Virus record (IMG/VR): IMGVR_UViG_3300024270_000011
Strand: one strand, 5' to 3'
DNA: 64,000 bases
DNA from: a virus
Taxonomy: Duplodnaviria; Heunggongvirae; Uroviricota; Caudoviricetes
Part shown: positions 1,657 through 47,797 of the stretch, piece by piece
Layout: every line of letters starts with the position of its first letter
How positions within the stretch are numbered: position 1 is the first letter of the stretch
The notes under the pieces: generated by a model
The model's database searches: none
Told to the model about the DNA's origin: nothing
What the model saw: only the letters and a program-made list of their open reading frames with translations
Translations under genes and position numbers: made by a program

Positions 1657-2088
1657 TTAACCTGCGGCGTTTTCATCAAGTGGGTCGTTATTTCCACTCA
1701 TCATTGCCAAGTCGTCTGGAGTGTATTCTGCCAGAGTTGTTTCATATTTAATTCCGTTTTTGGTGTTTTCAGCTGTTGCTTTCTTATAATAGAATGCTTG
1801 GCTTACTCCATATGCCGTCCATGGAAACGCTGCCATAGCAGTTAACCAAGGAAGTTCACCAAAATATTGATTTTTAATGCAGATAAAAGCTAAAACCAAG
1901 AAAGTTATAGTAACAAGCCAAATTAAAGCAGTTTCTTGGACCAAAAGCCACTTGGAAAATTCTTGAGTGTGCTTTTTATTCTTCTTTGTTGTAGAGCGTC
2001 TGCGAGACTTAGACTCAGTTACTCTTTGAGAAGACGCATATGTAGCATATCTTTCTGCATATGTTTGTGGTTTCTTATTTTCAGCCAT
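1657..2088 (-). CDS. small membrane protein, putative holin
   Basis: 143-aa ORF with a central hydrophobic TM region and a charged N-terminus, located directly downstream of two peptidoglycan hydrolase genes. Confidence 0.45.
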   Translation of the reverse strand: MAENKKPQTYAERYATYASSQRVTESKSRRRSTTKKNKKHTQEFSKWLLVQETALIWLVTITFLVLAFICIKNQYFGELPWLTAMAAFPWTAYGVSQAFYYKKATAENTKNGIKYETTLAEYTPDDLAMMSGNNDPLDENAAG

Positions 2089-2090
2089 TT

Positions 2091-3101
2091 TTACACCTTC
2101 TTAGTGTATTTCAAGCTAATCCATCCTGCGCCAGATTTTAACTTACCCCATCCAGCTTTTTCTTCTACGATGGTATAAGCTTCATTCTTATGTACTACAG
2201 TATTAATTTTATATGTAGTGCCAGCACCTGCACGAACATTTAGCGCGCTTGCGGTAATACGAACTATATATGGAAGAGAATTTCCAGTAGATGCATTCGC
2301 AACATAGCTGAAATACTTATTGTTTGCGTTACTTACATAAGCATATCCGCAACCAGCACCAGGCCATACGATTTTATACCAACCAGCAGAAGTTCTTTCT
2401 AAAACTTCAACTTTAGCACCTTTGTTAACAGTACCAATAATCTTATAAGAAGTTTTAGGGCCAGTTCTTACATTCATATAGTCTAAAGCGGTAGCGGTAC
2501 CAATGCCCTTGCCGCAGTATTCTTTGTTTTCAATTGGTGCTACTGGTTCAATCTTACCAGAAGAAACGTCAGCTTTTGCGCCATTAGAAAGAACAAGAAC
2601 AGTATGACTATTCTCTTTTACAAGAATGTCGCCGCGTTGCAAATAAGCATCGCTTGTAAGATATTTACTATCAGTTAAAATTTGGAATTTACCAGTATTA
2701 GCAAAAGCAGTTCTCATATTACGAGTGGTTCTCATGTTTCCGCCTGCATATAAGATATCAGCACTAACGCCTGCACAAATTGCACACATAGAAACTAATG
2801 AGCTACAGTCGCACTCACAATCTACAGAAACTTTTGACATATCTAACCCAACTTTTTTAAGCTGAGCATAAAGAGTATTACGATTCCACTGGTCATAACC
2901 AATATGTTTATTTGCACAAGCTTGTTCCATTGCAATTGCCATTTTTTCAGCAATTTCAGGGTCAGTACATCTAATTAAAACATTCCAGTCTTTATTATAC
3001 CAGTTTCTTGTGCAAACTTCTTTAGCGGTCTGGTCGCCAGCTTGACCGCCAGCGCCCTTTCCGTTTTCATCTATACTTGCATGTCCGATTAATACAGCCA
3101 T
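2091..3101 (-). CDS. endolysin / cell-wall hydrolase with two C-terminal SH3b cell-wall-binding domains
   Basis: 336 aa. C-terminal repeats GWYKIVW and AGWGKLKSGAGWISLKYT are SH3_3-like. N-terminal catalytic-like domain. Adjacent to second hydrolase and holin. Confidence 0.65.
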   Translation of the reverse strand: MAVLIGHASIDENGKGAGGQAGDQTAKEVCTRNWYNKDWNVLIRCTDPEIAEKMAIAMEQACANKHIGYDQWNRNTLYAQLKKVGLDMSKVSVDCECDCSSLVSMCAICAGVSADILYAGGNMRTTRNMRTAFANTGKFQILTDSKYLTSDAYLQRGDILVKENSHTVLVLSNGAKADVSSGKIEPVAPIENKEYCGKGIGTATALDYMNVRTGPKTSYKIIGTVNKGAKVEVLERTSAGWYKIVWPGAGCGYAYVSNANNKYFSYVANASTGNSLPYIVRITASALNVRAGAGTTYKINTVVHKNEAYTIVEEKAGWGKLKSGAGWISLKYTKKV

Positions 3102-3117
3102 ATAGGACCTCCTTTAA

Positions 3118-5427
3118 TTACACCCTCTTGGTGTAGTTTAAACTAATCCAACCAGCTCCAGATTTGAGTTTACCCCAACCGTTCTTTTCAGCAACGATAG
3201 TGTAAACCTCACCCTTTCTAACTTGAGTTTTAACTTTAAAGTTAGTTCCTGCATCAGAACGAACATTCAAAATATCAGCAGTAATTCTTACTAAATATGA
3301 TTTAAATTCAGAGGTAGAAGAATTAGAAGTTGTCTGACCTACGATAGAACTCTTCTTAACTACGCCAGTAATAGCGCCGGTTCTCAAAGTAGAGAACACA
3401 ACTTCATCATTGCGGATTTCTCTTACATAGAGAACACTCTTAAATACCCAAGCTGGAATATTACGACCAGTTGAATATGTAGCTCCTTCAACGAGCTTAA
3501 TAGTGTCGCCCACCTTTAATCCTTCGGTTGCAGCAGGCGGAGTAACAGTTTCGATTTTGTTAGGATATACCTGTACGCCTTTTGAGTTGTAAACGAAATA
3601 TCCATCACCAGCCTGGTCACAGCATTTCTTAGCATTTGCAAGAGAGGTAAAAGCACCTTTTTGAGAAGCTGCATTAGTCCAGCTCTTACGAACTCTATAC
3701 ATTTCACCAGCGGTTGGTTTTTCAGGGTCTGGGGTAACAGTAGTGCTCCCAGAGTCATTTAACAACTTCGCTACATCGTTACGAACATCATCCATATCCT
3801 TACCATATTTTCTAAACCAGTGCATTACGTCACCATGATTAGAACCAAAACCTAAATCATGAGACTCACAGTGGCAAGTAATAACAGGAACCTTAACTCC
3901 ATTCTTAGTTACAGTTCCTTTTGGATTTAAATTATACATCTTACATAAGTAAGCAGTAATTTCGCAAGCTTCTTTATAAACAGTTTCAAAATATTCTTTA
4001 CTATTTAAAGAATCTTCACAAATTTCAAACTGAATCCATCCGTCATTTAAAGAACCTTTAGAGCCACTGCCGCAACCCCATGGACGATAGTTCCAAGGCA
4101 TTGTCTGAACAGTAGTAACAGTTCCATCGGCAAGCTTACCAATCCAGCAGTTAAGACCAGCTTGACGTTCAATGTGGTTCCAGTCATTTTTGTTATTATT
4201 AGTTCCCAAAAGTTTCATAAGTTCAACATAGTTTTTATCATTAGAACTTGGTTGAACGTATCTCTTAAGGGTTGGGTTATTTGCACCTGTGCTGTGCCAA
4301 AGTACACCCAATACATTCATTGTACGAGTTCCTTTATAGCATGTAGAGTTAGTCATCATACATACTAATGGCTTATTACTTGAGTTGTACTTCATTTTAT
4401 TACCTCCAGTATTAGTTCCAGTAGTCGTGTTTGCTGATTTTGAAGCATATGAGTCATAGTACTTCTGACCATAGCTTGCGCGTTTATTTTGAACAGTTAC
4501 GCTTTGGTCTGCTGGTCTTTCGAACTTCAAGAGAACACTATTAGATGCCTCCAATACAGAAGTAGCTTCGCAAAGCACCTTGAGAACTGAATTTTTGTAC
4601 CCTTCGCTTAATTCTTTATATAAAAAATCAAGCTGCATATTTAAGTCACCAATTGACTTGTTAACGGAATTTGCATAGTTCAAAAGATTCTGCTTACGAG
4701 ACCAATAGGTCCATTGAGCTAATCCATATCCTGCGCTATCCTTTACGAAATTGGTATATTTACCCTGGTCAACTGCGGCTGTATATTCAGCATCAGTATA
4801 TCCCAATTTTTTCTCGTAAGTGTTTTGAAGATTAGTAGGTTTCAAGCCAGACTCAGCGTAAAGGTTACCCATTAAACCAGCAATACCATAATCATTAAGA
4901 CCTTTTGCCTTAAAATAATCCCAGATTACTTTAGGGTCTGCCGCAGATGTATTTACTGCGCTTGTATCAATCTTAGTATCAGTTGCCACAGTAGTACCTC
5001 CAAATGTTGAGCGAGAAGCTTCATTTTGGCCGTACCAGAAAGATTTAGTGGTTCTTGTGTCCACATGAACAAAAAATCCATCGCTATTGGTTTCATATAA
5101 TCCAATACCGAGGATTCCAATACTCTCTGCGTATTTTGCAATTTCTGCAGGAGTTACTCCAGTGATGTAGATATCTGCGGCCTGACCTTTTGCATGGCGA
5201 GAACCAGTTGCGCCGCCTACATTTTTGTTATGGGTTGCACATCTATAACCAGAACTAATATTGACAGGTTTGCCAAAATGCTCTCTAATCTGTTGTAAAT
5301 AAGTTACGAGCTTGTCATCGACAAGTGTAGAAGAGCAACATCCTGAACCGTGGCAATCAAACTCTGTGGATTTGAAGTTTGAACTAAGTTGAGTAGAACT
5401 ACCCTTAACAAAAGTTTTAATAGCCAT
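3118..5427 (-). CDS. multidomain peptidoglycan hydrolase: M15 (VanY-like) peptidase + lysozyme-like + Amidase_2/PGRP + SH3b
   Basis: 769 aa. SGYRCATHNKNVGGATGSRHAKGQAADI matches M15 zinc peptidase motifs. GLAQWTYW is a lysozyme-like region. WHSTG...CHCESHDLG is amidase-like. C-terminal GWGKLKSGAGWISLNY is an SH3b repeat. Confidence 0.7.
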   Translation of the reverse strand: MAIKTFVKGSSTQLSSNFKSTEFDCHGSGCCSSTLVDDKLVTYLQQIREHFGKPVNISSGYRCATHNKNVGGATGSRHAKGQAADIYITGVTPAEIAKYAESIGILGIGLYETNSDGFFVHVDTRTTKSFWYGQNEASRSTFGGTTVATDTKIDTSAVNTSAADPKVIWDYFKAKGLNDYGIAGLMGNLYAESGLKPTNLQNTYEKKLGYTDAEYTAAVDQGKYTNFVKDSAGYGLAQWTYWSRKQNLLNYANSVNKSIGDLNMQLDFLYKELSEGYKNSVLKVLCEATSVLEASNSVLLKFERPADQSVTVQNKRASYGQKYYDSYASKSANTTTGTNTGGNKMKYNSSNKPLVCMMTNSTCYKGTRTMNVLGVLWHSTGANNPTLKRYVQPSSNDKNYVELMKLLGTNNNKNDWNHIERQAGLNCWIGKLADGTVTTVQTMPWNYRPWGCGSGSKGSLNDGWIQFEICEDSLNSKEYFETVYKEACEITAYLCKMYNLNPKGTVTKNGVKVPVITCHCESHDLGFGSNHGDVMHWFRKYGKDMDDVRNDVAKLLNDSGSTTVTPDPEKPTAGEMYRVRKSWTNAASQKGAFTSLANAKKCCDQAGDGYFVYNSKGVQVYPNKIETVTPPAATEGLKVGDTIKLVEGATYSTGRNIPAWVFKSVLYVREIRNDEVVFSTLRTGAITGVVKKSSIVGQTTSNSSTSEFKSYLVRITADILNVRSDAGTNFKVKTQVRKGEVYTIVAEKNGWGKLKSGAGWISLNYTKRV

Positions 5428-5460
5428 TTTAGTCTATTCTCCCTTCTTAAATTTGTGCAT

Positions 5461-5491
5461 AAAAAAACCAAGTGGCTTTATTGCCACTTGG
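5461..5491 (-). terminator. rho-independent terminator after phoH-like gene
   Basis: CCAAGTGGC...GCCACTTGG hairpin followed by a T7 run on the minus strand. Confidence 0.6.
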
Positions 5492-5499
5492 TCTAATTA

Positions 5500-6738
5500 T
5501 CACATATTTTCAGCAATCATCGCAATCTTTGAACGATGGATATTCTTAAGAGTTACCTCTCCATAAATATCTGAACCTCTAAAGACGCGAGAAGCTCGTT
5601 TCATACCATTGTTAGCACCAGCAAACTCAATACTATCAACCTGAGTCTTGCAGTCACCATCAATAATACAAATGCTGTCTTCTCCAATACGTTGGAGAGC
5701 GAGCTTCATGAGTGAAATATCTAAATTCTGGGCTTCGGAGATATAAATGCCAGCGCGCATGCCAGTTGTATCATATCCACGAATGTCAGACATTGGTAAA
5801 AGAACAAGTTTCTCTTCTTGAATCATTCTTTCTACCTCAATCTTACCTCCGAATTTACTACTTAACAGGTTTCCGATTTGTGAATCCAAAAGTTTTTCAT
5901 CACGGGTTCCAGGATAGAATCCTAACTTAGCGGAATTCTTAGTCGCTACAGTATTACAGAACACAATGATTTTATCCAACTTGCCTTTATCAAGACGATT
6001 TAAAAGGAAACCAAGAGCTAAATAAGTCTTACCAGAGCCAGCTGGGCCTTTTAACATGGTAATTTGATTATTAGCTAAACTATCAGCCGCAAAAGCTTGA
6101 TAGACATCCCCCTTCATCGGACGAACATCTCCAAACCACTTAGAATTAAATGTTTGGTAATCGAGGTGACGATAAGCTTCACCAGTCCAACAAAGTCTAT
6201 CTACGATTTCTCCACCATCTTTCTCCTTAACAATTAGATATTGATTTGGAAGAAGATTGAAGCGGTTTTCATTAAAGTTAGAGTAAAACTCACCCATTTC
6301 GTCATTGTTTAAAGAAACTTCTACGAAACCAGTGTAATCGTCCTCATTATCTTCGTTAACACTTGCTACGTCTGCGAAGAAAATTCTTGCGATAGTTTTC
6401 AGAGCGAGGTCATTAGTATAAAAACATACTTCATCGCCCTTTGCGCAATCAATGGCGCATGCGAGAATTTTACTATCGTTAGTAATGGTTAATTCTGCCT
6501 CCTGGATGGGAATGAGCATTTTTTCCTTAAAAATAACGATTTTAAACTTCCCGATGTTTTCGTCTAACATATGTAATAGTTTACGAGCCGCATATTTGAC
6601 CTCTTGGTCTTTGTTAGATGAGGTCTTGATATTTTCAAGCTCATCAAGTGTAATGGATGAAATCGCAAATGGGATATTTTCTTCAAACAGACTATCTACC
6701 TTTAGTAGTAGGCTGCTTGTATCATAAAAGTTAATCAT
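5500..6738 (-). CDS. phoH: PhoH-like ATPase with N-terminal PIN domain (YlaK-like)
   Basis: 412 aa. Walker A GPAGSGKT. PhoH family architecture with N-terminal PIN-like domain. Confidence 0.8.
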   Translation of the reverse strand: MINFYDTSSLLLKVDSLFEENIPFAISSITLDELENIKTSSNKDQEVKYAARKLLHMLDENIGKFKIVIFKEKMLIPIQEAELTITNDSKILACAIDCAKGDEVCFYTNDLALKTIARIFFADVASVNEDNEDDYTGFVEVSLNNDEMGEFYSNFNENRFNLLPNQYLIVKEKDGGEIVDRLCWTGEAYRHLDYQTFNSKWFGDVRPMKGDVYQAFAADSLANNQITMLKGPAGSGKTYLALGFLLNRLDKGKLDKIIVFCNTVATKNSAKLGFYPGTRDEKLLDSQIGNLLSSKFGGKIEVERMIQEEKLVLLPMSDIRGYDTTGMRAGIYISEAQNLDISLMKLALQRIGEDSICIIDGDCKTQVDSIEFAGANNGMKRASRVFRGSDIYGEVTLKNIHRSKIAMIAENM

Positions 6739-6979
6739 CGTAGTCCTCCTCGTCTTCTTCTTCTACCTCTACTGGTGCAGGGACGCAAAAGCCAATCTGG
6801 CGTTTAGGCGGCTCTTCTGGTGTAAGTTTGTCTTGAACATCCTTTTGCATTAAAGCCAATTTAACTGAAAGTTTACCTTTCAATACCTCAAGCCATGTCA
6901 TAATGACAGTTGCGAGTGCATCAAGAATAGGCCATAGGAATGACGCGAATAACATACCTGCTAAAAAATATAGTAACAC
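6731..6979 (-). CDS. small membrane protein with acidic C-terminus
   Basis: 82-aa ORF, hydrophobic N-terminus, EEEDEEDYDD tail. 8-bp overlap with phoH start. Confidence 0.4.
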   Translation of the reverse strand: MLLYFLAGMLFASFLWPILDALATVIMTWLEVLKGKLSVKLALMQKDVQDKLTPEEPPKRQIGFCVPAPVEVEEEDEEDYDD

Positions 6980-7021
6980 AGATATAGAAAATCACCCCTT
7001 TGAAATTTCTTTCATTCCTAC

Positions 7022-7486
7022 TTAAGATTCAAAGAATAAAGATTGTTGGGCTTTGGCCATTCTTCTTAAACGGACACGGGTATAAAATTTTTCTTTTTCG
7101 TCGATAATCTCGTATAGGTTTTGCAGTTCTGTAGCTATGATGTTCTTAGCTGTAGCTAAATCATTTTCAGTCATGCGAATGTGTCTTTGTAACATAATAT
7201 TTTCATAGCCTCTGGGATTAAAACGAGAACTGTGTTTCATATTGTAATAAAGCCTGTTCAAGGCATTTAACTCGCACTTGAGTTCATCCCTATGACCACG
7301 AAGAGCATTGATTCTTGCGCGACGGTATGCAAGTTCGCAACCAGTCTTCTCGCTCATCATGTCTGAATCATCTGGATGACATGCCGCAGTTCCAACATAA
7401 GTTTTACCAGTAGTAGCATCAGTCAAAGTACAAGTTGCGTATCCAACCTCTTCATCCCAGGTAAAAATTGGGTCTAACTTAGTCAT
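7022..7486 (-). CDS. hypothetical protein
   Basis: 154-aa ORF immediately downstream of promoter module 7519-7547. Confidence 0.5.
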   Translation of the reverse strand: MTKLDPIFTWDEEVGYATCTLTDATTGKTYVGTAACHPDDSDMMSEKTGCELAYRRARINALRGHRDELKCELNALNRLYYNMKHSSRFNPRGYENIMLQRHIRMTENDLATAKNIIATELQNLYEIIDEKEKFYTRVRLRRMAKAQQSLFFES

Positions 7487-7518: not shown

Positions 7519-7547
7519 ATTATACCAAAAAATATAGGAAAAGTCAA
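7519..7547 (-). promoter_or_regulatory. SigA-type promoter module (TTGACT-N17-TGgTATAAT)
   Basis: Minus-strand -35 TTGACT, 17-bp spacer, -10 TATAAT. Upstream of 7486 start. Confidence 0.6.
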
Positions 7548-7679
7548 ATGGGCACTATTTGGAAATTTTTTTCCTATGGGCGATTTTTTGACGACAACGG
7601 TCGTCAAGGGTGGTCACGAAGAAAAAATGGTATGAAAAATCCCCAAGGCTTGCGCCCTGGGGACTATATGTATTATGCG

Positions 7680-9212
7680 TTAGTTGTTCTCACCATTGGT
7701 AACAATCTTAGCGCCGAGCATACCAGTGAGCAGAGTCTTAAGGTCGATACCCAAGGACTCAGCCATACCCTCAGAAATCTGAGTAGTAGTGCTCATGATG
7801 TTGCCAGCGAGCTGACCGGAGTCATTACCCAGCATGACAATCTTGTCAACGCCCTGGTAGCCTTCACCAACCGCACGAGCGATTTCAGGCAGCTGCTCGA
7901 AGTAAGTCTTGATGGCCTGCATCTGCATGTCTGCCATAGCAGCGTCACCGTACTGCTTCATAGCCTCAGCCTTCTCACGAAGACCGTCTGCCTCAGCCTG
8001 GAGCTTAGCCTTGATGGCTTCAGCCTCAGCGAGACCCTTTGCCTGTGCCGCAGCAGCTTCTGCTTCACCCTGTGCACGAACTGCATCTGCAAGAGCCTTC
8101 TTAGCTGCAGCTTCTGCCTGAGCGAGAGCCAGGTCAGCTTCAGCCTTCTTCTCTGCCTCAATCTTAGCAGCTTCTGCCAGTCTCTGACGCTCGAAGAGGT
8201 CAGCCTCAGCGGCCTTCTGAGTCTTGTACAGAGCGGCGTCCGCAGCCTGCTGTTCAGCGTACTTCTTAGCTTCAGCAGTCTTCTTGATTTCAGCTTCCAG
8301 TGCCTTTTCCTTGATGGCTACGGCACGTTCCTGGAGCTCGATTTCCTTCTCCTGACGAGCAAGGTTAGCGTTAGCGGTTGCAATTTCCTGCTCTCTACGC
8401 TGGTTCTCAGCCTCAATCTGCTTAGCAGCATCAGCCTTAGCCTGCTCAGTGTCAGCCTGCTTCTGAAGTTCTGCCTTACGGATTGCGAATTCAGTCTGCT
8501 TCTGAGCAATCTCAGTTGCAGCTGCAACCTTAGCATCGTTGGCGTCCTTGTCGGCCTGAGCCTGTGCTACAGCAACCTCAGCCTTAGCCTTAGCAGCTGC
8601 GATGGAAGCTTCCTTACGAATCTTTTCGATGTTGTCAACACCGAGGTCCTGAATCACACCATTTCTATCAGAGAAGTTCTGAATGTTGAAAGTGGTGAGG
8701 TCGATACCAAGGTCTGCAAGGTTAGGAGTAACGTTCTCCTGAATCTTCTCAGCGAATGCCTTCTTGTCGCCGCGAATCAAATCTTCGAAACGAGTCTGGG
8801 AAATGATTTCACGAATGTTACCTTCGAGAACAGGAATTACAATGTCTCGAATCTGAGCCACAGTGTAGCCAGCAAACTTGCTTGCCGCGATGCTCTGACG
8901 AGCAGGGTCAAGAGAAATGCTCATGTTCGCAACTGCATCAACGAGCACATGGATAGCATCCTGAGTAGGAATCTCATTACGAGAAGTGAAGTCTACCTGA
9001 ATGTTTTCCAGTGTCATGCGCTGAACACGCTGAAGCAGAGGAATTACGAAGATACCGCCGCCAGTCTTGCGCTTAACCTTACCCATACCAGAGATGATAA
9101 GGACTTCGTTAGTGCCAGCAACCTTCCAGCAGCTCTTAATCAGAACAATTACCAGAACGATTGCGATGAGGGCGATGCCCACAGTGGAAATAATAGGAAT
9201 CAATACATCCAT
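7680..9212 (-). CDS. flotillin-like SPFH/band-7 domain protein with long Ala/Glu/Lys-rich coiled coil
   Basis: 510 aa. N-terminal TM helix, SPFH core (IQVDFTSRNEIPTQDAIHVLVDAV...) and a ~200-aa AEAKA-type coiled coil typical of flotillin/YqiK. Locally GC-rich. Plus ORF 7548-9218 is its shadow. Confidence 0.75.
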   Translation of the reverse strand: MDVLIPIISTVGIALIAIVLVIVLIKSCWKVAGTNEVLIISGMGKVKRKTGGGIFVIPLLQRVQRMTLENIQVDFTSRNEIPTQDAIHVLVDAVANMSISLDPARQSIAASKFAGYTVAQIRDIVIPVLEGNIREIISQTRFEDLIRGDKKAFAEKIQENVTPNLADLGIDLTTFNIQNFSDRNGVIQDLGVDNIEKIRKEASIAAAKAKAEVAVAQAQADKDANDAKVAAATEIAQKQTEFAIRKAELQKQADTEQAKADAAKQIEAENQRREQEIATANANLARQEKEIELQERAVAIKEKALEAEIKKTAEAKKYAEQQAADAALYKTQKAAEADLFERQRLAEAAKIEAEKKAEADLALAQAEAAAKKALADAVRAQGEAEAAAAQAKGLAEAEAIKAKLQAEADGLREKAEAMKQYGDAAMADMQMQAIKTYFEQLPEIARAVGEGYQGVDKIVMLGNDSGQLAGNIMSTTTQISEGMAESLGIDLKTLLTGMLGAKIVTNGENN

Positions 9213-9260
9213 TCTTAGTTCTCCTTTTTCTTATCATATTTTGTTTTCAAAGTACATATA

Positions 9261-9566
9261 TTAGCAGTGCCATTCGCACTTAACTAACCAAAAGATTCTT
9301 CGACCTTGGCGGTATCTGACCGCGTGGTCATCATACCAACCTTTATCGAATTTTTCAATCGCCTTTTCGGCTTCCTCTCGGTTTTTGTAAACCGGCTCCT
9401 TATGGAAAGTTAAGTTACCGTGGTAACCACAACTCTCCTGAGGGTCATAAGCAAAACTGTTGAGGTCTTTCAGAATTGCTCGCTCACTTGTTGAACAGTG
9501 ATAGTCCAAATGTCGGATTGCGTGGCTCATTCTTGTTCCTCGCTCTCCCCAAGCATTGCGATACAT
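9261..9566 (-). CDS. hypothetical protein
   Basis: 101-aa ORF, Cys/His-containing, no recognizable motif. Confidence 0.4.
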   Translation of the reverse strand: MYRNAWGERGTRMSHAIRHLDYHCSTSERAILKDLNSFAYDPQESCGYHGNLTFHKEPVYKNREEAEKAIEKFDKGWYDDHAVRYRQGRRIFWLVKCEWHC

Positions 9567-11782: not shown

Positions 11783-12574
11783 TTAGAAATGCCAATGATA
11801 ATTGTCGTTACGACCTTCGGCGCGAGGGCCAGGCAAGTTAATGCATTTCTTGTGTTCATTTCTTGCATGACGCTGGCTCATATTACGCCAAGTATCGACA
11901 TCGGGGATAATGTCCAGAAGCAGATAATCATCAATCTGGTCATAAGTTACGCCCATATTGTCTTCATCAGTCTGACCAGTCATACCATCCGCAGGCGCCT
12001 TATCAACCAGGTGACGAGGGATTTCCTTCATCGCACGACCCATCATGAGAACTTCACGAACAGTCAGCTCCTGGAACAGATGGAAGTCGCCGGCGAGATC
12101 GCCATACTTGGTGGTGTAACCAATCCAACCCTCGGACCAGTTACCAGTATTGACTACACGACCTCCATAAATTGCTGCGATAGCATATAGAGTTACCATA
12201 CGCATACGAGCAGGAACATTAGTGCGAACAGCAGGAATTTCGCAATCACCACGACCCACGCAACCATAAAATGCATCAACTGCAGGCTCGATATTGATTT
12301 CATCATACTTGATACCAAGAGCCTCGCAGACTTCATAGGAATGCGCGATGTCTGCCTGAGTGCCACAAGGCATCAATACGCCGTGAACCCTGTCTGCGCC
12401 CAGTGCTCGGACAAGCAGGGCGGCCGCAATTGTAGAATCCTTACCGCCGGAAATACCGATGATAGCTTTGGTCTCGGGACCGGCATTCTTCACGAAATAT
12501 TTACGAATCCACTCAACAGTGTATTCAATCTGATATTTGGGGTCAAATTCCCACTTTCTCTTATCCTTACCCAT
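11783..12574 (-). CDS. nadE: NH3-dependent NAD+ synthetase
   Basis: 263 aa. PP-loop SGGKDS (GISGGKDSTIAAAL). NadE size and layout. Confidence 0.8.
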   Translation of the reverse strand: MGKDKRKWEFDPKYQIEYTVEWIRKYFVKNAGPETKAIIGISGGKDSTIAAALLVRALGADRVHGVLMPCGTQADIAHSYEVCEALGIKYDEINIEPAVDAFYGCVGRGDCEIPAVRTNVPARMRMVTLYAIAAIYGGRVVNTGNWSEGWIGYTTKYGDLAGDFHLFQELTVREVLMMGRAMKEIPRHLVDKAPADGMTGQTDEDNMGVTYDQIDDYLLLDIIPDVDTWRNMSQRHARNEHKKCINLPGPRAEGRNDNYHWHF

Positions 12575-12575
12575 T

Positions 12576-13079
12576 TTACTTTCCTCCGTTATAATGAACG
12601 ATATAGACTATATAGTCTTCATCAAAAACTTCTCGAATCATTGCTTCGATTACATTCCAGTTTGCGCCACCGCGGTCACAGCCAATCAGATAAGGGAAAC
12701 CGATTGTAGACCCCTTAGGAAGAACCTGCTTGAGATTATTCAAACAAATCCAAAACGCATCATAGGAAGTGTAACGCTTGCCATCATAACCATAGTTATT
12801 CTGTGCAAACATATTGCAGACATGTTGATGTTTAATGTCTTTCATAAAGTCCTCATACAGAGGAACGAGCTGAACATCACCAAGCATCATATTAACGCCC
12901 AATGTTACCATTGCATCATATTTTGCTCGATATGCATCATAAACTTGCGGGTAGGTATCGCGAATCTGCTTCGCGATACCAGACGCCATTTTACCCTGAC
13001 AATTCACCTGATGGCAAATCACATCAAGATTCATGTCTTTCTGTACTTTGAGTAAGTCACCAGGCATATGAACTATCAT
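12576..13079 (-). CDS. macro-domain protein (ADP-ribose / O-acetyl-ADP-ribose processing)
   Basis: 167 aa. ICHQVNCQGKMASGIAKQI and GFPYLIGCDRGG match macro-domain signatures. Confidence 0.7.
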   Translation of the reverse strand: MIVHMPGDLLKVQKDMNLDVICHQVNCQGKMASGIAKQIRDTYPQVYDAYRAKYDAMVTLGVNMMLGDVQLVPLYEDFMKDIKHQHVCNMFAQNNYGYDGKRYTSYDAFWICLNNLKQVLPKGSTIGFPYLIGCDRGGANWNVIEAMIREVFDEDYIVYIVHYNGGK

Positions 13080-14551
13080 TAGTGTACCTCCGGATAAAGA
13101 TTTGCACGAATCTGCTGGAAAGTCTGCAGATTGTAGTACTGACCATCCTTGTAGATAGTCTTCATAACAGTGAGATTGTCGTCAACCCACTCAGAGAAAC
13201 CATCAATGCACTCGAAAGTGCCATCGGGATGCTTCTGAACCATGCAGCAACCCTTCTGAGACTTCTTCAGTCCGCCAACGTCGGTCTTAGGGTCCTTGTA
13301 GATAGGAACTTCCTTACCACCGAAGACACCATAAGTAGCCTTCATAGCCATGCCCCAAGTATCACGAGTCAGAACAGTGAACTTGTTGTCCGGGCTGAAC
13401 AGAGCGTGGAAACAGAAAGCGCCAACGCCGAAGACCACATTAGTGGAAGCAAAGCCCAGTTTTTCGAGGGATTCATAAATCTGCTCAACGCGGTTCAGAG
13501 TGCAGCCATCGCCGTAAATCAGACCAATATGAGGGTCGAGGACCTTGTAACCAGCAGCATTGATAGTGCCGCCAAAAACATCCCACAGCTTCTGGATAGT
13601 GCCAACGGAGATAGCAACCATGTCGCCGGAGTCAGGACGAATGAGCAGTTTGCCATTGTGGGCGAGAATTTCGTCCTTGCAAGCAGGAATGATATTGTTT
13701 ACCATATTCCAGTAGTCATAGGTATCAGATACCATAGAGAAACTGGTATTAGGATAGATTTCAGTCAGCATACGCTTTACGAAAGTAATTTCATCACCAT
13801 CGATTGCGTAGTTAGCAGCCATAACAGAGTGCTCAGTGGAAACGGCGCCAATGCCAATCTTGTGCTCTGCACAGTTAGCATAGTAGTACTCGTCCAGATA
13901 AGGCAGAGCAGGAATGGTAGAAGTCTTATTGAAAGACAGGAGCCAAGAAGCAGAGCAACGAGTTGCATCTTCCAGGCAGCTCATGCCACGGAAACCGAAG
14001 TCAGCCATTGCCATATAAGGGTCGGCGCCAGGTGCGGTATGAGAATAGAACTTCTCAGCAACCTTGTGGTACTCCCAACCTACGGTCGCATATGCGCACA
14101 TAGGCCACACTTCAGTCTGAAGCAGGCACTCAAGCCACTGAATAACCCAGGCGAAACGAGGATGGGTATTGCGCATCTCAACCAGAGGAATTCCCATATT
14201 GATTACAGAACCCTCGGGAATTGCGCGGATTTCTACGGGCAGGTAGCCCAGTTCATGCAGTTCGACGATACGGTCTCGCGCCACATTGCCAAGACCAAGG
14301 TGGGCATCGATGTAATGGTCATATTCATACATAACCTGTTCGATGGTTTCATAGAAGAACTCTTCAAAGCCCTTCTGCATATCCATAATGAAAGGCTGAA
14401 TACCATAAACAACCATCTTAGGGAAGTTGTCATTCATTGCCTTTCGAGCAGTCAGATAAGATACCAGATACTCCTGGTTATCGGGATACATCAGAGGGTG
14501 GCACTGCTTATAAGAGTCACTGTACAGCATAATCATCTTACGAAAATTCAT
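13079..14551 (-). CDS. nadV: nicotinamide phosphoribosyltransferase (NAMPT/NadV)
   Basis: 490 aa. NAMPT-like MVSDTYDYWN motif and overall length. Plus ORF 13082-14656 is its shadow. Confidence 0.8.
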   Translation of the reverse strand: MNFRKMIMLYSDSYKQCHPLMYPDNQEYLVSYLTARKAMNDNFPKMVVYGIQPFIMDMQKGFEEFFYETIEQVMYEYDHYIDAHLGLGNVARDRIVELHELGYLPVEIRAIPEGSVINMGIPLVEMRNTHPRFAWVIQWLECLLQTEVWPMCAYATVGWEYHKVAEKFYSHTAPGADPYMAMADFGFRGMSCLEDATRCSASWLLSFNKTSTIPALPYLDEYYYANCAEHKIGIGAVSTEHSVMAANYAIDGDEITFVKRMLTEIYPNTSFSMVSDTYDYWNMVNNIIPACKDEILAHNGKLLIRPDSGDMVAISVGTIQKLWDVFGGTINAAGYKVLDPHIGLIYGDGCTLNRVEQIYESLEKLGFASTNVVFGVGAFCFHALFSPDNKFTVLTRDTWGMAMKATYGVFGGKEVPIYKDPKTDVGGLKKSQKGCCMVQKHPDGTFECIDGFSEWVDDNLTVMKTIYKDGQYYNLQTFQQIRANLYPEVH

Positions 14552-15925: not shown

Positions 15926-16699
15926 TTAAATAATCTCAATCAGTTCATTCTGAGCATTTCCAGGGAAGATGCTATTGGTAGTGAAAATCTTCTCTACCAG
16001 ACCAGAATTCACCAAATCTCCATTGAAAATAGTCATCTCACAGTGAGTGACATAGAGATAAACCTTTGCTGCGCCAGCGTCCTTGAGAGCCTTAGCAGTA
16101 TGGTAGAAAGTGCCACCACGAGAGCAGATATCGTCAACAATCAGAACATTCTTGCCGACAACTACATCGGGATGCATGAGGTCCAGACCCTCAATCTTAC
16201 CATCTGCCCAGTTACGACGCTTCACGCCAAAGGAATAAGGCTTGTTTACCATACCAGAGTAACGCTTCATTGCGCCCTCGTCAGGGTAGCACATAACCAG
16301 ATTTTCGTCTGCAATCTTTTCGATTACAGTTTCGATATGGGCCTGTGCAGATACAACCTGCACATTATCCAGAAGAGCCTCGCACACATTGGAATGGGGG
16401 TCTTCGATGTACACAGCAGCAAATCCCAGGTCATTGATGGTTTCGCAGAAATACTTCAGCGTAAACACATCAGTAGGAGCCTTAACCCGGTCCATACGAG
16501 CGTGAGGGCAGTAAGGCATATACAGGCTCAGAGGAAGGTGCTGATAGTGCTTGCGGATGCAGATGATGGTAAACAACTCGGCATCATTCTCATAATTCCA
16601 GATTACCAGGCCGTTTTCCAGCTGCTCCGGCAGATGCATGAGCAGGGTGTTGTCGGGATAAGAAAGCTGGTCAATTACAACATTTCCAATTCGAATCAT
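15926..16699 (-). CDS. prs: ribose-phosphate pyrophosphokinase-like (PRPP synthetase family)
   Basis: 257 aa. PRPP-binding loop VLIVDDICSRGGT and Prs-like HARMDRV region. Shorter than canonical Prs. Confidence 0.6.
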   Translation of the reverse strand: MIRIGNVVIDQLSYPDNTLLMHLPEQLENGLVIWNYENDAELFTIICIRKHYQHLPLSLYMPYCPHARMDRVKAPTDVFTLKYFCETINDLGFAAVYIEDPHSNVCEALLDNVQVVSAQAHIETVIEKIADENLVMCYPDEGAMKRYSGMVNKPYSFGVKRRNWADGKIEGLDLMHPDVVVGKNVLIVDDICSRGGTFYHTAKALKDAGAAKVYLYVTHCEMTIFNGDLVNSGLVEKIFTTNSIFPGNAQNELIEII

Positions 16700-16700: not shown

Positions 16701-16889
16701 TTACTTCTCCTTTATCAATCTACTATAAACTTCTTCGATTCGGTCACTATCTTCCCATCCCATCTGCCTATATGCAGCCAATCTCAATATTGCACAATAC
16801 TTTTTGAAATTTTGCTTTGCATATATGAAGAGGGATGGGGAGTAAGGAATATCGTTTTGCTTTAGAAAAGCAATTTGTTCATCATTCAT
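16701..16889 (-). CDS. hypothetical small protein
   Basis: 62-aa ORF. Confidence 0.3.
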   Translation of the reverse strand: MNDEQIAFLKQNDIPYSPSLFIYAKQNFKKYCAILRLAAYRQMGWEDSDRIEEVYSRLIKEK

Positions 16890-17454
16890 TGATAACCTTA
16901 ATCTGGCAAGACTTCATAGTTTCCAGAGCTGCCAGATGACGCTCGGGAGTAACGCCGGCGCAGCAACTTGCGTCAACAGTTACCTGCACTTCAGGGCAGT
17001 AAGCCTTAATCAGCATTGCATTGGAAACAACGCAGATATCGGTGCAAACGCCCATGAGGATAACCTCGTCGATAGGATTGTCGGGGAGAATGTCGCGGAT
17101 AATCTCAGCCAGGCGGATAGAACCAAAGGTATTCTTGAGAACACGGCTCTTCATAATGTCCTTAGCAGAGTAGAAGCAGAAATTGCTACCATAGTCCACA
17201 ACGCTGGAAATCTGCTTATTAATGCTCCAGCCCGGAGTACCCTCGATACAGTGGGGAACAGGCAGGTTCTTACCCTCCTGGGTATCCATATAGTCAGCGT
17301 AATGGGTGTCCTTGGTGAACATAATCAGATTATCACCGGCGTTCAGTTCTTTCAGACGCTCCACCATCACAGGAACGATTGCCTGAGCCTCAGGACTACC
17401 CAGGGCGCCATCGATGAAATCATTCTGCATATCAACTACAACAATAACTTTCAT
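16882..17454 (-). CDS. pncA: isochorismatase-family hydrolase, probable nicotinamidase
   Basis: 190 aa. VVVDMQNDF and GVCTDICV catalytic motifs. Sits in the NAD-salvage cluster. Confidence 0.65.
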   Translation of the reverse strand: MKVIVVVDMQNDFIDGALGSPEAQAIVPVMVERLKELNAGDNLIMFTKDTHYADYMDTQEGKNLPVPHCIEGTPGWSINKQISSVVDYGSNFCFYSAKDIMKSRVLKNTFGSIRLAEIIRDILPDNPIDEVILMGVCTDICVVSNAMLIKAYCPEVQVTVDASCCAGVTPERHLAALETMKSCQIKVINE

Positions 17455-25858: not shown

Positions 25859-27292
25859 TTACTCCTCCCCATTTTCCTCTGCTACATCCTGAGCCTCTTC
25901 CATATCAGGCGCAACAGCGTCGGCCTTGATGATGCCCTCGAGCACCTTGAAAGAGAAGTTCTTATGCTTGTAAGCGCAGAACTTAGGTCTGTTGACGATT
26001 CTTACAACTACGCCCTCACGAACGTGGGTCTTACCGATTGGGTCTGGACCATCGTAGAAATCTTCTGCAATCTTACGAACATACTCACCAGCGTCAACCA
26101 CCTGTAGAGAACCTACATCGTCAGGCAACTGGTAGAACTCAGGGATGATGAACTGGGCAAAAACTGGGACAGTCTTAACGCCCATCTGCTCACAACGATA
26201 ACGCATGAAGTCAGGAGTGTACTCAACCACATCGCCATCCTCGTTGGTCATAGTCATTCTGTAGACATAGATATCAGACTGAGGCACAGTAGTTTCGATT
26301 TCGAAGTTACCCTCTGCATCTCTACCGTACATAGTCTTCTTTCCAGTTGGAGAACAACCATAAGAGAAAGTAGTAGTCTTTCCGTACTGCTTTACGAAAT
26401 CCTTATCGTTCAGCTTCTTGTTATCAGCGTCGCCCATGATAGGTGCGCCAGAAGTAGTGAAGCCAACTACCTCATAGTAAACAGTCTCGCCCTTATGGAG
26501 CTTGCCATCGAAGAACTTGGAGTGCTGCTCACGGAACTCGTTAGAACCGTAATAGCCACCATCAAAGTCTGCAAGGATAACTCTACGAGTACCAGATACA
26601 GAACCCCAGTTGTACTGTGCCACACCCTCACGTCTCAAGATACGGTCCATAAGAGTTCTTTTATAGCCATTGAAACGAGGCAGGTTAGCAGTACGCTGAG
26701 AAGTGCCGTGCATCTTCAAGGTAATCTCAACGAGGTCACCAGGCTTGAAAGCAGACAAGTTGTAAGCCAACTGCTCAGTATCTGCGTGCTCCATGAACAG
26801 AGGTGCCACAGGCACTTTCTTCTTGCGGGTACGGTTACCCTCAGGAGTGTTAGAGCGAGTCTTGTTGTTTCTCTTAGGGATATACTTGGTGCAGATATCG
26901 TGACCGTTTACCACGTCGATAGTATCACCAATTTTCAAATGATTTTCTGCCTTATCGTTCTCGCCGTAGCAGTAGTCCAAGCAAGACAGAGGCAAGAAAA
27001 GTCCATCAGACTTCTCACCACGCAGACGAATAGTAGTAACATTTCTCTTATCAGGGTCCATGTAACCGCCAATGTTGTTACCATTCTCGTCCTTTTTACG
27101 GAGCAAGTTGTTCTTCTCCGCGAACTCTACAGAAAGCTGTCCATCAGTTGGGAAGTATACGCCGACCTGGTCAGCAACATACTCCATGCTTACACAGACA
27201 GTGTTGCCAAAGCACTCAGCCAACTGAAGTCTATCAGCATTTGGGTGCTTACGCAAATTCTTTAGAGTAGTAACATAAGCTACATATGCCAT
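25859..27292 (-). CDS. ATP-dependent RNA ligase with N-terminal tRNA-binding (EMAP/Myf-like) domain
   Basis: 477 aa. N-terminal LKNLRKHPNADRLQL OB-fold tRNA-binding-like domain. Nucleotidyltransferase motif I KMHGTS and ligase-like downstream motifs. Plus ORF 26495-27265 is its shadow. Confidence 0.6.
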   Translation of the reverse strand: MAYVAYVTTLKNLRKHPNADRLQLAECFGNTVCVSMEYVADQVGVYFPTDGQLSVEFAEKNNLLRKKDENGNNIGGYMDPDKRNVTTIRLRGEKSDGLFLPLSCLDYCYGENDKAENHLKIGDTIDVVNGHDICTKYIPKRNNKTRSNTPEGNRTRKKKVPVAPLFMEHADTEQLAYNLSAFKPGDLVEITLKMHGTSQRTANLPRFNGYKRTLMDRILRREGVAQYNWGSVSGTRRVILADFDGGYYGSNEFREQHSKFFDGKLHKGETVYYEVVGFTTSGAPIMGDADNKKLNDKDFVKQYGKTTTFSYGCSPTGKKTMYGRDAEGNFEIETTVPQSDIYVYRMTMTNEDGDVVEYTPDFMRYRCEQMGVKTVPVFAQFIIPEFYQLPDDVGSLQVVDAGEYVRKIAEDFYDGPDPIGKTHVREGVVVRIVNRPKFCAYKHKNFSFKVLEGIIKADAVAPDMEEAQDVAEENGEE

Positions 27293-44080: not shown

Positions 44081-44149
44081 TAAATGGTTTTTGGAAGAGA
44101 ACCTTAACTCTAAGAGTTTCATTTGGACTTGTACTCATAACTATGTCAT

Positions 44150-44228
44150 TGGTCGGAGTGGCGGGATTCGAACTCGCGACCTCCTGATCCCAAATCAGGC
44201 GCTCTAACCAAACTGAGCCACACCCCGA
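44150..44228 (-). tRNA. tRNA-Pro(TGG)
   Basis: Acceptor TCGGGGT, anticodon loop TTTGGGA. Confidence 0.8.
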
Positions 44229-44330
44229 TATTAACAAGGCGGTTTTGTAAACAAACTTAAGTTTTATATAGGGCATAAAAATTTAATTTCTGTTATCAAA
44301 TAGGATTGCAGAATCCGCCTTTATTTATTT

Positions 44331-44489
44331 TTAATTTTTAGTTTTACTCTTGTCGAACTGCGCCCAAAATCTTTCGATGGCTAACTTATTGATTTCATCG
44401 TGGTGCTTACATAGGGTTCCACCGTAGTAGGTGTTGTTGCACACATTATTGTTTTCGCATTCTCGACAATTCTGAGGAATATTTGCCAT
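44331..44489 (-). CDS. hypothetical small Cys-rich protein (below the 60-aa ORF-track cutoff)
   Basis: 52-aa minus-strand ORF MANIPQNCRECENNNVCNN... directly downstream of promoter 44522-44550. Confidence 0.3.
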   Translation of the reverse strand: MANIPQNCRECENNNVCNNTYYGGTLCKHHDEINKLAIERFWAQFDKSKTKN

Positions 44490-44521
44490 ATCTTTTCTTC
44501 CTCTCTTTATCTTACATATAT

Positions 44522-44550
44522 ATTATAACATTTTTTTTGAAAAATGTCAA
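44522..44550 (-). promoter_or_regulatory. SigA-type promoter module with perfect TTGACA -35
   Basis: TTGACA-N17-TGTTATAAT. Confidence 0.65.
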
Positions 44551-44561
44551 GTTTCTCTTTT

Positions 44562-44638
44562 TGGTGGGCCCTCGGGGATTCGAACCCGGGACCGTCCAGT
44601 TATGAGCTGGATGCTCTGACCGACTGAGCTAAGGGCCC
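44562..44638 (-). tRNA. tRNA-Met(CAT) (or Ile2/lysidine type)
   Basis: Acceptor GGGCCCT, anticodon loop CTCATAA, elongator-type D-stem. Confidence 0.75.
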
Positions 44639-44665
44639 ATATCGGCGGGGCGGTTGCCCCACCTT

Positions 44666-45778
44666 TTATACTGCGTAATGCAGGTTTTTAGTACCCTTGC
44701 GACGTATCACGATGTAATCCACAGTGCGCTGCTTGCGCAGTGCCAGAGCCTTCTGCTCTTCTGGCTCATCGTAATAGTCATCCTGCCAGTCAACTTCACA
44801 CTCTCCGCCAGGGATAATAGTGCCACCCTTATCATAATTGTACACAGAGTTCTGAGGATTAAAGGTGACATAGAAGTCAAATCCCTTTTCATCAGTGAAC
44901 TCAACATGAACATCATCGTCTGCGAACATATCCATGTAAATCTCACGACGACACTTACCGCCGTCCGCAAACATAAGAGTTGCAACATAACTCTCACGAG
45001 AGAGGTTGAGGATATTCAAATCCTTAATTGCTTCCTCGAAGCAAGTACCAAGAGAGAGTTCGAAAGCAATCGCGCGCAGACAGTCATAGTTCAAATCAAT
45101 CTTTCTTGCGAAAGCGATTACCTTGTCAATCTGTGCATATGCGGTTTCTGGAATCTTGTCTTCCAGATACTCACGAATCTGCTCTGCGGAAGGATAATCA
45201 AATCTAAAATGATAATGGAAACGACCAGGGCGATTAACCAAATAGTTATTGAGGTTATTCAATTCGTTACAAGTAACGATGAACAACTTCTTACCCTGAC
45301 TCAAACCATCGAATAAAGTCAGCATTTCGGACTGAGGGTCGCTCATAGAGTCTCTATCGCCCTTAGAATAAAAAGTCTTATCAAACTCGTCAAAGAAGAC
45401 GATTACTTCCTGCTGAATAGAAGTTAAGTAGTCTGCAATGCCTGGGATATACTGATTAACAATAATCAGAGGATAGCCTGCCGCAATTCCCTCAACAGAG
45501 AGCATTTTGCCGAACAGAGATTTACCGATACCCTTGGCGCCAGACAGAATTACACCCAGATTTCGGTCGAAAATCTCAAAAGACTTGAGAACCTTATGCA
45601 CCTTATCGGTATGCACACCATAGACCTTTTCTGTAATTGCAATATCATCGTAGCCAGTCAAGAAGAAACCGGACTGCTGACTAAAATTAACCTGATAAGC
45701 CCTTGCAGGTAGCTCATTATAGGTTTTCATTGTATCGTCATAGATACGAAATACATTACCAGTATTTACTACTCGCAT
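44666..45778 (-). CDS. AAA+ ATPase
   Basis: 370 aa. Walker A GAKGIGKS, Walker B FFDEFD, sensor RPGRF. Plus ORF 44654-45316 is its shadow. Confidence 0.7.
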   Translation of the reverse strand: MRVVNTGNVFRIYDDTMKTYNELPARAYQVNFSQQSGFFLTGYDDIAITEKVYGVHTDKVHKVLKSFEIFDRNLGVILSGAKGIGKSLFGKMLSVEGIAAGYPLIIVNQYIPGIADYLTSIQQEVIVFFDEFDKTFYSKGDRDSMSDPQSEMLTLFDGLSQGKKLFIVTCNELNNLNNYLVNRPGRFHYHFRFDYPSAEQIREYLEDKIPETAYAQIDKVIAFARKIDLNYDCLRAIAFELSLGTCFEEAIKDLNILNLSRESYVATLMFADGGKCRREIYMDMFADDDVHVEFTDEKGFDFYVTFNPQNSVYNYDKGGTIIPGGECEVDWQDDYYDEPEEQKALALRKQRTVDYIVIRRKGTKNLHYAV

Positions 45779-45820
45779 AACTTACCTCTTACTTTCTTAA
45801 TCATAATTATTTTCTACTAC

Positions 45821-45897
<77 letters not shown>

Positions 45898-46032
45898 ATA
45901 TAAATAGCGTCTTTCCTCAACCACATTCTCACTCTTGGAAAATCAAACCCCGCTAAAGGTCGACTCAAATGGGCCGTAGATATTTAGCTGTGGATTGCAT
46001 CAATCTAAAGACATTACCCCATCTGAAACGCT

Positions 46033-46109
46033 TGGCATCCCAGCAGGGACTCGAACCCCGGACACATGGCTTAGAAGGCCATTGCTCTATCCAACTGAGC
46101 TACTGGGAC
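46033..46109 (-). tRNA. tRNA-Arg(TCT)
   Basis: Acceptor GTCCCAG, anticodon loop CTTCTAA. Confidence 0.8.
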
Positions 46110-46140
46110 ATATATTATTTTGCCCACCGGTTAAGAGAGA

Positions 46141-46371
46141 TTAGGCAGCTACGCCCATCTTCTTAACCAGTCGCATGAAATAGTTCGGATTTAAATCATC
46201 GGGAGCCACGAGTAATGCATCTTTACCAACGAAGGCAAACAGACCAAGAATACTGCGTGGGTCAATCATAGCGTTGCCGCAAGAAACAGACATATCAATG
46301 CCAGCATTTGCTGCTACTTCACTAACACGAACTACATCTTCCTTTGTGTTCATCTTAATAGGACAAATCAT
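46141..46371 (-). CDS. hypothetical protein with HPr-like C-terminal segment
   Basis: 76 aa. RSILGLFAFVGKDALLVA resembles the HPr KSIMGVMSLG region. Confidence 0.3.
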   Translation of the reverse strand: MICPIKMNTKEDVVRVSEVAANAGIDMSVSCGNAMIDPRSILGLFAFVGKDALLVAPDDLNPNYFMRLVKKMGVAA

Positions 46372-46471
46372 CTTTCTGACCCCCTTTGTTATTTAGTTTA
46401 GGTTGGACAGGTTCCGTACTGTCCCTCGGTTTTAAACTCCGAACGCTGAAGCTATATTAAACCTTCAGTAC

Positions 46472-46547
46472 TGGTCCGCCGTCAGGGGCTCGAACCCTGG
46501 ACACCCGGATTAAGAGTCCGGTGCTCTACCAACTGAGCTAACGGCGG
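46472..46547 (-). tRNA. tRNA-Lys(CTT)
   Basis: Acceptor CCGCCGT, anticodon loop CTCTTAA. Confidence 0.8.
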
Positions 46548-46668
46548 ATATATCAAGGCCTCAAGGTCATGACTCTCAAGACCAAGACACTTTTGCAAAA
46601 CTTCGGCTTCGTTAACAAGCCTCAGACGCCTGCGAAGGGAGTCGAACCCATTCAAGCCACTACAGGCG

Positions 46669-46743
46669 TGGAGCTGATAGCGAGAATCGAACTCGCGACC
46701 CCTTCCTTACCAAGGAAGTGCTCTACCGCTGAGCCATATCAGC
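46669..46743 (-). tRNA. tRNA-Thr(GGT)
   Basis: Acceptor GCTGATA, anticodon loop TTGGTAA. Confidence 0.8.
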
Positions 46744-46751
46744 AAAGATTG

Positions 46752-47123
46752 TTATAGGACACAATCTCTCCAAATTCGGTCATACCAATTTGGTTCTTGC
46801 TTTTCTAAATCTGAAAACAAAAATGGAATTTCTTCAAGTTGGACTACACCAGTCCAGTCATAGAAGTTCTCACCATCGCCGCACACGAAGTGCCCGTCGA
46901 TTGGCAAGTAGTACAACTCCAAAAATGGAAATCTCGTTTGTAGTATGCGAGCAAACCAATAGCAGTTGCCATCTAACCAATTTGCGTCCTTGCGCCAGCG
47001 TCGATGGATGAAATCAAGAATCTCATACATACAACAAACTGTCCTTTCTTTTGGTTTTCTGCGAGATGCGCCGGATGAGCTTCCCAGGCGTCCGGGTTTC
47101 CTACTCTGGCATATGACCTCCAT
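46752..47123 (-). CDS. hypothetical protein (true start may be internal)
   Basis: 123-aa ORF. N-terminal third is low complexity. Confidence 0.3.
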   Translation of the reverse strand: MEVICQSRKPGRLGSSSGASRRKPKERTVCCMYEILDFIHRRWRKDANWLDGNCYWFARILQTRFPFLELYYLPIDGHFVCGDGENFYDWTGVVQLEEIPFLFSDLEKQEPNWYDRIWRDCVL

Positions 47124-47183
47124 TTTGGCGTGATACCTTTACCTACACTACACATCTCTAACAAACTTGTACTTCGTTTGTTT

Positions 47184-47274
47184 TGGCGGAGAGGGTGGGG
47201 TTCGAACCCACGCGCCGCTACTAACGACCTACTCCCTTTCCAGGGGAGCCCCTTAACCACTTGGGTACCTCTCC
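47184..47274 (-). tRNA. tRNA-Ser(GGA)
   Basis: Class II. Acceptor GGAGAGG, anticodon loop CTGGAAA. Confidence 0.8.
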
Positions 47275-47372
47275 AGATAAGCAAGACACTTAACCAAAAG
47301 CACTTTTAATTCCCTAAATTAACGCTTAATTGTTATCATTATAGCAATGATAAAGTTGCTGTATGTGTCTTA

Positions 47373-47466
47373 TGGCGGAGGCGGTGAGGCTCGAACTCAC
47401 GCGCCGGGTATTAGCCGACCTAACAGTTTAGCAAACTGTCCCCTTCACCAACTTGGGTACGCCTCC
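47373..47466 (-). tRNA. tRNA-Ser(GCT)
   Basis: Class II. Acceptor GGAGGCG, anticodon loop TGCTAAA. Confidence 0.8.
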
Positions 47467-47721: not shown

Positions 47722-47797
47722 TGGTGGCTGGGGTCAGGGTCGAACTGACTACACTGGGATTTTCAGTCCCATGCTCTACCAGTTGAGCTACCCAGCC
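47722..47797 (-). tRNA. tRNA-Phe(GAA)
   Basis: Acceptor GGCTGGG, anticodon loop CTGAAAA. Confidence 0.8.

Follow-up and report, generated by a model that had tools for sequence, protein, structure and literature searches.

Flotillins are well-known membrane scaffolds, the exact job of which is debated even in model bacteria. The sigma-W envelope-stress regulon of Bacillus subtilis, whose triggers include phage infection, contains both FloA and FloT; when they are lost, the membrane becomes more rigid and cell-wall synthesis is slower (PMC8581546). SPFH proteins are described as building membrane-abutting domes from their SPFH domains and coiled-coil walls (10.1101/2025.04.21.649849). Phage-borne SPFH proteins are found in PhiSH19 and Vi01-like phages, GIB1, Xanthomonas phage X1 and the crAss-like csAssE-Sib, and their role was called unclear (PMC3220722, PMC13239085, PMC13384950); no functional study of a phage-encoded flotillin was found in the literature searched. 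Here, a full-length flotillin gene is described from a 64,000-nucleotide (nt) stretch of the Caudoviricetes record IMGVR_UViG_3300024270_000011 in IMG/VR. The whole analysed stretch is referred to as the window; it is part of a large phage. New here are the conserved slot that the gene occupies, the presence of two flotillin lineages within that slot and a recurrent, non-obligatory adjacency to a major vault protein (MVP) homologue. Unless stated otherwise, the individual features of the window located below are on the minus strand.

The open reading frame (ORF) at 7680–9212 encodes a genuine flotillin-family (FloT-like) SPFH protein of 510 amino acids (aa), as identified from the ORF list, Pfam, sequence matches to the Protein Data Bank (PDB) and Foldseek. 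It starts with ATG (at 9212), and a ribosome-binding site, AAGGAG (9221–9226), can be read directly from the sequence 8 nt before this codon. The Band_7 family (PF01145) matches aa 31–211 (8580–9122) with 74.4 bits against a cut-off of 23.6 (E 1.6e-20), which places the protein in the SPFH/Band 7 superfamily. The Flot family (PF15975) matches aa 383–465, C-terminal to the SPFH core, with 28.7 bits, barely above the cut-off of 27; the precomputed Pfam labels of the homologues agree with this marginal match. The Kyte-Doolittle hydropathy of 19-residue segments peaks at 3.23 at aa 7 and is 1.13 or less elsewhere, giving a single strongly hydrophobic segment. The predicted N-terminal transmembrane (TM) anchor (aa 4–28, 9129–9203) is also helical in the AlphaFold2 model, and the N-terminus of the homologues is hydrophobic. 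Residues 195–440 are composed of 31% Ala, 14% Glu and 13% Lys, and the Ala/Glu/Lys-rich coiled-coil helices (aa 193–453, 7854–8636) were assigned from composition, the AlphaFold2 model and the included Flot match.

In a phmmer search of all PDB chains, flotillin-1 (E 2e-41, over aa 32–326) and flotillin-2 (E 1e-34) were the only chains to pass E 1e-3. The AlphaFold2 monomer model, built from a 20-sequence alignment, has a mean pLDDT of 70.8, with 81–92 in the SPFH core, and consists of a TM helix (aa 4–28), an α/β SPFH domain (aa 29–190) and two long helices (aa 193–310 and 317–453). The flotillin complexes 9bq2 and 9l3g take Foldseek ranks 1–4 for this model (E 2e-21), followed by the HflK/C, stomatin, prohibitin, erlin and QmcA cages (E 1e-9 to 1e-12), and MVP chains match at E ~1e-7. 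The preliminary description of this gene, made from the DNA alone, had read the product as a flotillin-like SPFH protein with a TM anchor and an AEAKA-type coiled coil, to be abandoned if profile searches returned no Band_7/SPFH match. The Band_7 match was found, and hydropathy, composition and the model all agree with that reading, as do the MVP fold matches with its further statement that the SPFH fold is the fold of the MVP shoulder.

The sole PHROGs match for the flotillin, a tape-measure match to the coiled coil, was rejected as spurious, and PADLOC returned no match for it at E ≤0.01. An antisense ORF of 556 aa (7548–9218, plus strand) spans the whole gene. Its product is Leu/Ser/Cys-rich and of low complexity, and the ORF has the look of a compositional artefact of the flotillin's GCN/GAR-rich codons; all homology found is in the minus frame, no search aimed at the antisense product having been made.

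The best NCBIfam match of the phage protein is the FloT model (NF058507; FloT of B. subtilis is also called YuaG), with 221.3 bits against an equivalog cut-off of 700. In contrast to FloT and the chromosomal flotillins of Clostridia, the protein comes from a large, lytic-looking phage, where its gene is terminal in an accessory block. The eukaryotic flotillin-1/flotillin-2 complex (9bq2, 9l3g) is matched significantly in sequence and ranks first in fold, which suggests a common cage-forming architecture. Eukaryotic flotillins have no transmembrane helix and are attached by a hairpin and acylation. They are hetero-oligomers of two paralogues, unlike the single flotillin of the window, in which a profile from 20 flotillins detected no second copy. 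The HflK/HflC, QmcA-YbbJ, stomatin, prohibitin and erlin cages have the SPFH core and helical wall in common with the phage protein; their coiled coils are shorter. HflK/C has the FtsH protease as its client and QmcA has the NfeD protein YbbJ, whereas no such partner was identified for the phage flotillin. Among the other phage SPFH proteins, those described in detail differ from the full-length flotillin of the window, the PhiSH19 protein being 263 aa long and that of GIB1 of the lipoprotein type. The csAssE-Sib protein, annotated in INPHARED as a 'flotillin family protein', has only 27% identity over a third of the protein. The shoulder domain of MVP is homologous to SPFH (PMC13347060); the flotillin lacks vault repeats, and MVP lacks a membrane anchor.

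Relatives of the flotillin are numerous in metagenomes, with over 100 protein clusters (≥86% identity) found on contigs of up to 220 kb. IMG/VR yielded 14 loci with a single-protein query and 346 confirmed flotillin stretches with an alignment query. Contig-level analysis covered the best 80 of these 346, and loci (numbered with the prefix L) were taken with 10-kb flanks. In INPHARED, only distant flotillin matches were found (7 records, five of them over at least half of the length, the best at 42% identity), and megablast of the 5–13 kb region gave no match, so there is no close cultured or deposited relative in that database.

The order zinc-finger gene (orf88), AAA_33 gene, metallophosphatase, (orf101), flotillin, orf154, orf82, PIN-PhoH and lysin is kept in dozens of viral contigs of 100–200 kb. 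It persists even where flotillin identity is 43–53%, with the flanking genes at 45–70%. Pairwise dN/dS values of 0.07–0.14 against four relatives indicate that the flotillin is under purifying selection. The small protein encoded by orf101 (9261–9566) contains Cys and His residues and has no family match. The gene adjoins the flotillin upstream in both flotillin lineages, with 56–83% identity, at some loci above that of the flotillin itself, and is absent where the flotillin adjoins MVP.

Two of the related contigs have features of their own. The 402-kb IMG/VR contig 3300032167_000002 (L011, L175, L265) carries two complete flotillin slots, one per lineage, and MVP; it is probably an assembly chimera or else consists of two related phage genomes joined together. 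At L016 (7518–7613; the 140-kb contig 3300021400_001206), the flotillin opens with ATG ATT TAG, after which the frame runs on through a normal TM helix. This suggests TAG recoding in the ~140-kb relatives; the window's own 37 tRNAs include no suppressor tRNA.

When the species genomes of GTDB were scanned, the hits fell into three groups. The first were phage-syntenic contigs binned into assorted metagenome-assembled genomes. The second were flotillins on the chromosomes of Blautia and the cultured isolate 'Bacterium 1XD42-54', with 55–61% identity (59–61% for the closest), and the third were ordinary flotillins of the Lachnospiraceae and Oscillospiraceae, with 43–47% identity. The loci of the second group that were inspected (L061, L137) are plainly cellular, encoding an MFS transporter, an alcohol dehydrogenase, a serine acetyltransferase and a rhamnosidase. 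In neighbour-joining trees, one clade with 100% support unites the clade of the window with the Blautia group and several further phage flotillins. Another 23 phage sequences make up a second lineage (93% support), which is found at the identical syntenic slot and lies elsewhere in the tree. The deep nodes are poorly supported, so the direction of transfer between phage and Blautia is not given by the tree. The phage family has thus long held a flotillin, which was exchanged at least once, and the gene was probably captured from Clostridia-type bacteria long ago. Placement with the Blautia clade, together with lysins of the Gram-positive type, points to a host that is probably Gram-positive and Lachnospiraceae-like.

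Based on these comparisons, we propose that the flotillin builds a cage, anchored in the membrane, by which the host membrane is organised or maintained while infection proceeds, and that its gene is the last of an accessory, host-takeover transcription block that also contains NAD+ salvage genes, a Thg1-like gene and the MVP homologue. The probability of this joint reading is put at about 60%. After infection, the single N-terminal helix would embed the protein in the host cytoplasmic membrane, as expected from its family, and the long coiled coils would mediate oligomerisation to give a dome or cage at the membrane's inner face, as in SPFH proteins of solved structure. Such a cage could fence off or fluidise a patch of membrane. 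A scaffold that the host uses in envelope stress and membrane organisation would in this way be supplied by the phage as a copy of its own, independent of host regulation, and the host membrane could stay functional or suitably organised through a long infection.

Several points weigh against this proposal. The FloT score is so far below the equivalog cut-off that functional equivalence to FloT cannot be assumed. An NfeD-family gene adjoins the SPFH gene in B. subtilis floT (floT-yuaF) and in qmcA-ybbJ, whereas here no NfeD family match was found with Pfam or PHROGs in the flanking ORFs (orf101, the metallophosphatases, orf154, orf82 and PIN-PhoH). Close phage relatives (L017, L047, L026, L045) seem to be without a flotillin in either known slot, which implies that its function is dispensable. 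Furthermore, the results do not discriminate between membrane maintenance, a platform for phage proteins and interference with a host flotillin. A platform for phage membrane proteins, control of lysis timing, membrane protection or exclusion and co-assembly with a host flotillin or with MVP are all ranked below membrane organisation or maintenance.

The position of the gene at the end of a block is evident from its base composition. The flotillin gene has a GC content of 0.508–0.509, the highest among the listed ORFs of the window, compared with 0.38–0.39 for the downstream genes and 0.415 for the whole window. Its GC content at third codon positions (GC3) is 0.513, as is that of the MVP gene. 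The genes at 9261–36129 have GC3 values of 0.33–0.555, all except three above 0.40, and those at 1657–7486 and 52618–63627 have values of 0.25–0.365, giving two codon-usage classes in the window. The flotillin gene is therefore the edge gene of a ~28-kb block of higher GC3 and not a GC island. The preliminary statement that it is more GC-rich than its neighbours is true of the downstream genes, while those upstream (9261–36129) are GC3-rich too. When the protein was re-encoded with the codon usage of the block, the expected GC content was 0.488, and with that of the low-GC3 genes 0.416, against 0.509 observed. The remaining excess lies at codon position 1 (GC 0.636 overall and 0.72 in the coil, aa 195–440) and is due to Ala and Glu codons. 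A late structural class was considered for the low-GC3 genes and rejected, those at 52–64 kb being radical-SAM and peptidase-like.

The boundary of the block coincides with transcription signals just after the flotillin gene. A predicted intrinsic terminator (7633–7665), consisting of a 12-bp GC-rich hairpin and a U-run, lies 15 nt past the stop codon and ends the higher-GC3 block; its RNA fold has an energy of −22.5 kcal/mol (z = −4.4), which none of 200 shuffled sequences equalled. A hairpin directly follows the flotillin stop codon in nearly all of 14 relatives checked, which span both gene arrangements and both flotillin lineages; most have a U-rich tail, and the sequences differ. Beyond the terminator, a promoter scan identified a candidate sigma-70-like promoter (7519–7547; TTGACT, 17 nt, TG-TATAAT; 11/12 matches with an extended −10, a match to consensus only). 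It heads the next low-GC3 unit, which is made up of orf154, orf82, PIN-PhoH and the lysins.

The downstream unit encodes, besides the PIN-PhoH protein, a 769-aa multi-domain endolysin (3118–5427) with M15 peptidase, lysozyme, amidase and SH3 domains and, adjacent to it, a second cell-wall hydrolase (2091–3101) with an ELLD endolysin-like domain and SH3. Such a lysin pair (2091–5427) is typical for phages of Gram-positive hosts. The product of orf82 was considered as a holin and rejected because of its strongly acidic C-terminus and the lack of any family match in support. Upstream of the flotillin are, in order, orf101, a metallophosphatase, an AAA_33 kinase-like gene, a gene for a small zinc-finger protein and another metallophosphatase. 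Further upstream are an NAD synthase (NadE, 11783–12574), orf167, NAMPT (13079–14551), two ORFs without a family match, a PRPP-synthetase-like gene (15926–16699), an isochorismatase/nicotinamidase-like gene (orf190, 16882–17454) and the MVP homologue. The genes between the flotillin and MVP thus include an NAD+ salvage set (NadE, NAMPT, PRPP-synthetase-like and isochorismatase). The MVP homologue (17552–20044) encodes 830 aa, lies 8.3 kb upstream of the flotillin on the same strand and has Pfam matches to MVP_shoulder (E 1e-26) and Vault_3, which confirms the preliminary report of an MVP homologue in this phage.

The window also contains 37 tRNA genes, all on the minus strand (37187–52524), that cover most amino acids and include four tRNA-Met (CAT). 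A Thg1-like tRNA-His guanylyltransferase, an RNA ligase and an 'RNA-binding protein' (phrog_850) are encoded at 20886–21815, 25859–27292 and 34570–36129. These three genes suggest a set for tRNA repair or maturation, located beside the large tRNA array.

The conserved slot places the flotillin three genes upstream of the two endolysin-type genes, and membrane proteases are enclosed by SPFH cages in known structures (HflK/C with FtsH). The protein could accordingly control lysis timing by organising or restraining holins, or membrane proteases acting on them. This is quite unlikely, however, as the terminator, the new promoter and the codon-usage boundary all lie between the flotillin and the lysis-side unit, no holin was identified beside the flotillin, the ~140-kb relatives have the flotillin beside MVP and away from the lysins, and four loci (L028, L035, L050, L052) keep orf154 and the lysins without a flotillin. 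Phages use NAD+ salvage genes of the kind found in the block to counter NAD-depleting immunity. That the flotillin ends this block, and that its 59–61% identity to host-type flotillins makes hetero-oligomers conceivable, could point to an anti-defence or exclusion factor that shields the membrane from abortive-infection effectors, keeps the DNA of competing phages from entering or disables host signalling by co-assembly with a host flotillin. Such a role is regarded as unlikely, since the idea comes purely from gene context, PADLOC has no match for the protein and no SPFH anti-defence precedent was found in the literature searched. The high GC content of the gene could also mark a recently acquired passenger without a phage role, recent acquisition having been raised in the preliminary description. 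This is extremely improbable: the GC3 equals that of the 28-kb block, the overall GC content is within 0.02 of that expected for the protein with block codon usage, and the syntenic slot across a large phage family and dN/dS of ~0.1 contradict it.

A further alternative, also put forward in the preliminary description, is that the flotillin and the phage MVP work together, as two cage formers of SPFH fold that would build or tether a vault-like or membrane-bound compartment. The two genes are in one same-strand block in the window, MVP chains are matched by the fold of the flotillin model, and flotillin and MVP co-occur on at least 20 of the 81 flotillin-bearing viral contigs, contig-level counts of this kind being lower bounds. 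In ~140-kb relatives (L016, L018, L030, L037, L041, L042, L046, L049, L056), a flotillin, a gene for a 140-aa HD-like protein and MVP follow each other within 2.5 kb, and the flotillins that adjoin MVP come from at least three flotillin lineages. By contrast, among the matches listed, a flotillin lies within 10 kb at 11 of the 43 MVP loci and is missing from that range at 31, as determined by tblastn and profile search. Both known flotillin slots are empty in the four close relatives named above, and at five loci (L142, L148, L164, L166, L171) the flotillin and the isochorismatase gene are present with no MVP beside the latter. The 7 flotillin-matching records in INPHARED do not overlap with its 3 huge-phage MVP records. 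Through rearrangements it is the isochorismatase gene, not the flotillin, that is the constant neighbour of MVP, and BLASTP of the flotillin against the window's MVP gave no significant similarity, only coiled-coil noise. Moreover, all co-occurrence of flotillin and MVP is within one phage family, and shared ancestry can explain it. The recurrent adjacency therefore stands, whereas a working partnership is improbable: flotillin and MVP are frequent neighbours in one phage family and not obligate partners. Organisation or maintenance of the host membrane by the flotillin itself remains the preferred reading.

MVP homologues from human-gut Caudoviricetes phages have already been described in a preprint, with no mention of flotillin (10.1101/2023.11.10.566534), and a 2026 preprint reports ADP-ribose bound in the shoulder of the eukaryotic vault and an NADase inside vaults (10.64898/2026.05.01.722283). 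The phage MVP may be tied to NAD metabolism, given this preprint, the NAD+ salvage genes nearby and the isochorismatase gene that stays beside MVP in many relatives. It is rather doubtful that flotillin and MVP, perhaps with the intervening NAD+ salvage enzymes, form a membrane-tethered proteinaceous compartment in infected Firmicutes; if true, this would be a bacterial-virus counterpart of vault and raft organelles, for protection or metabolism.

The phage flotillin offers a compact natural system for the study of flotillin function, as the gene can be deleted and its timing traced, with a practical value that is limited until a cultured host-phage pair exists. A full-length flotillin has long been kept by a whole family of large gut phages, has been swapped at one slot and is found beside MVP in some of them. 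This long retention, the swapping and the adjacency to MVP suggest that membrane organisation matters to these phages.

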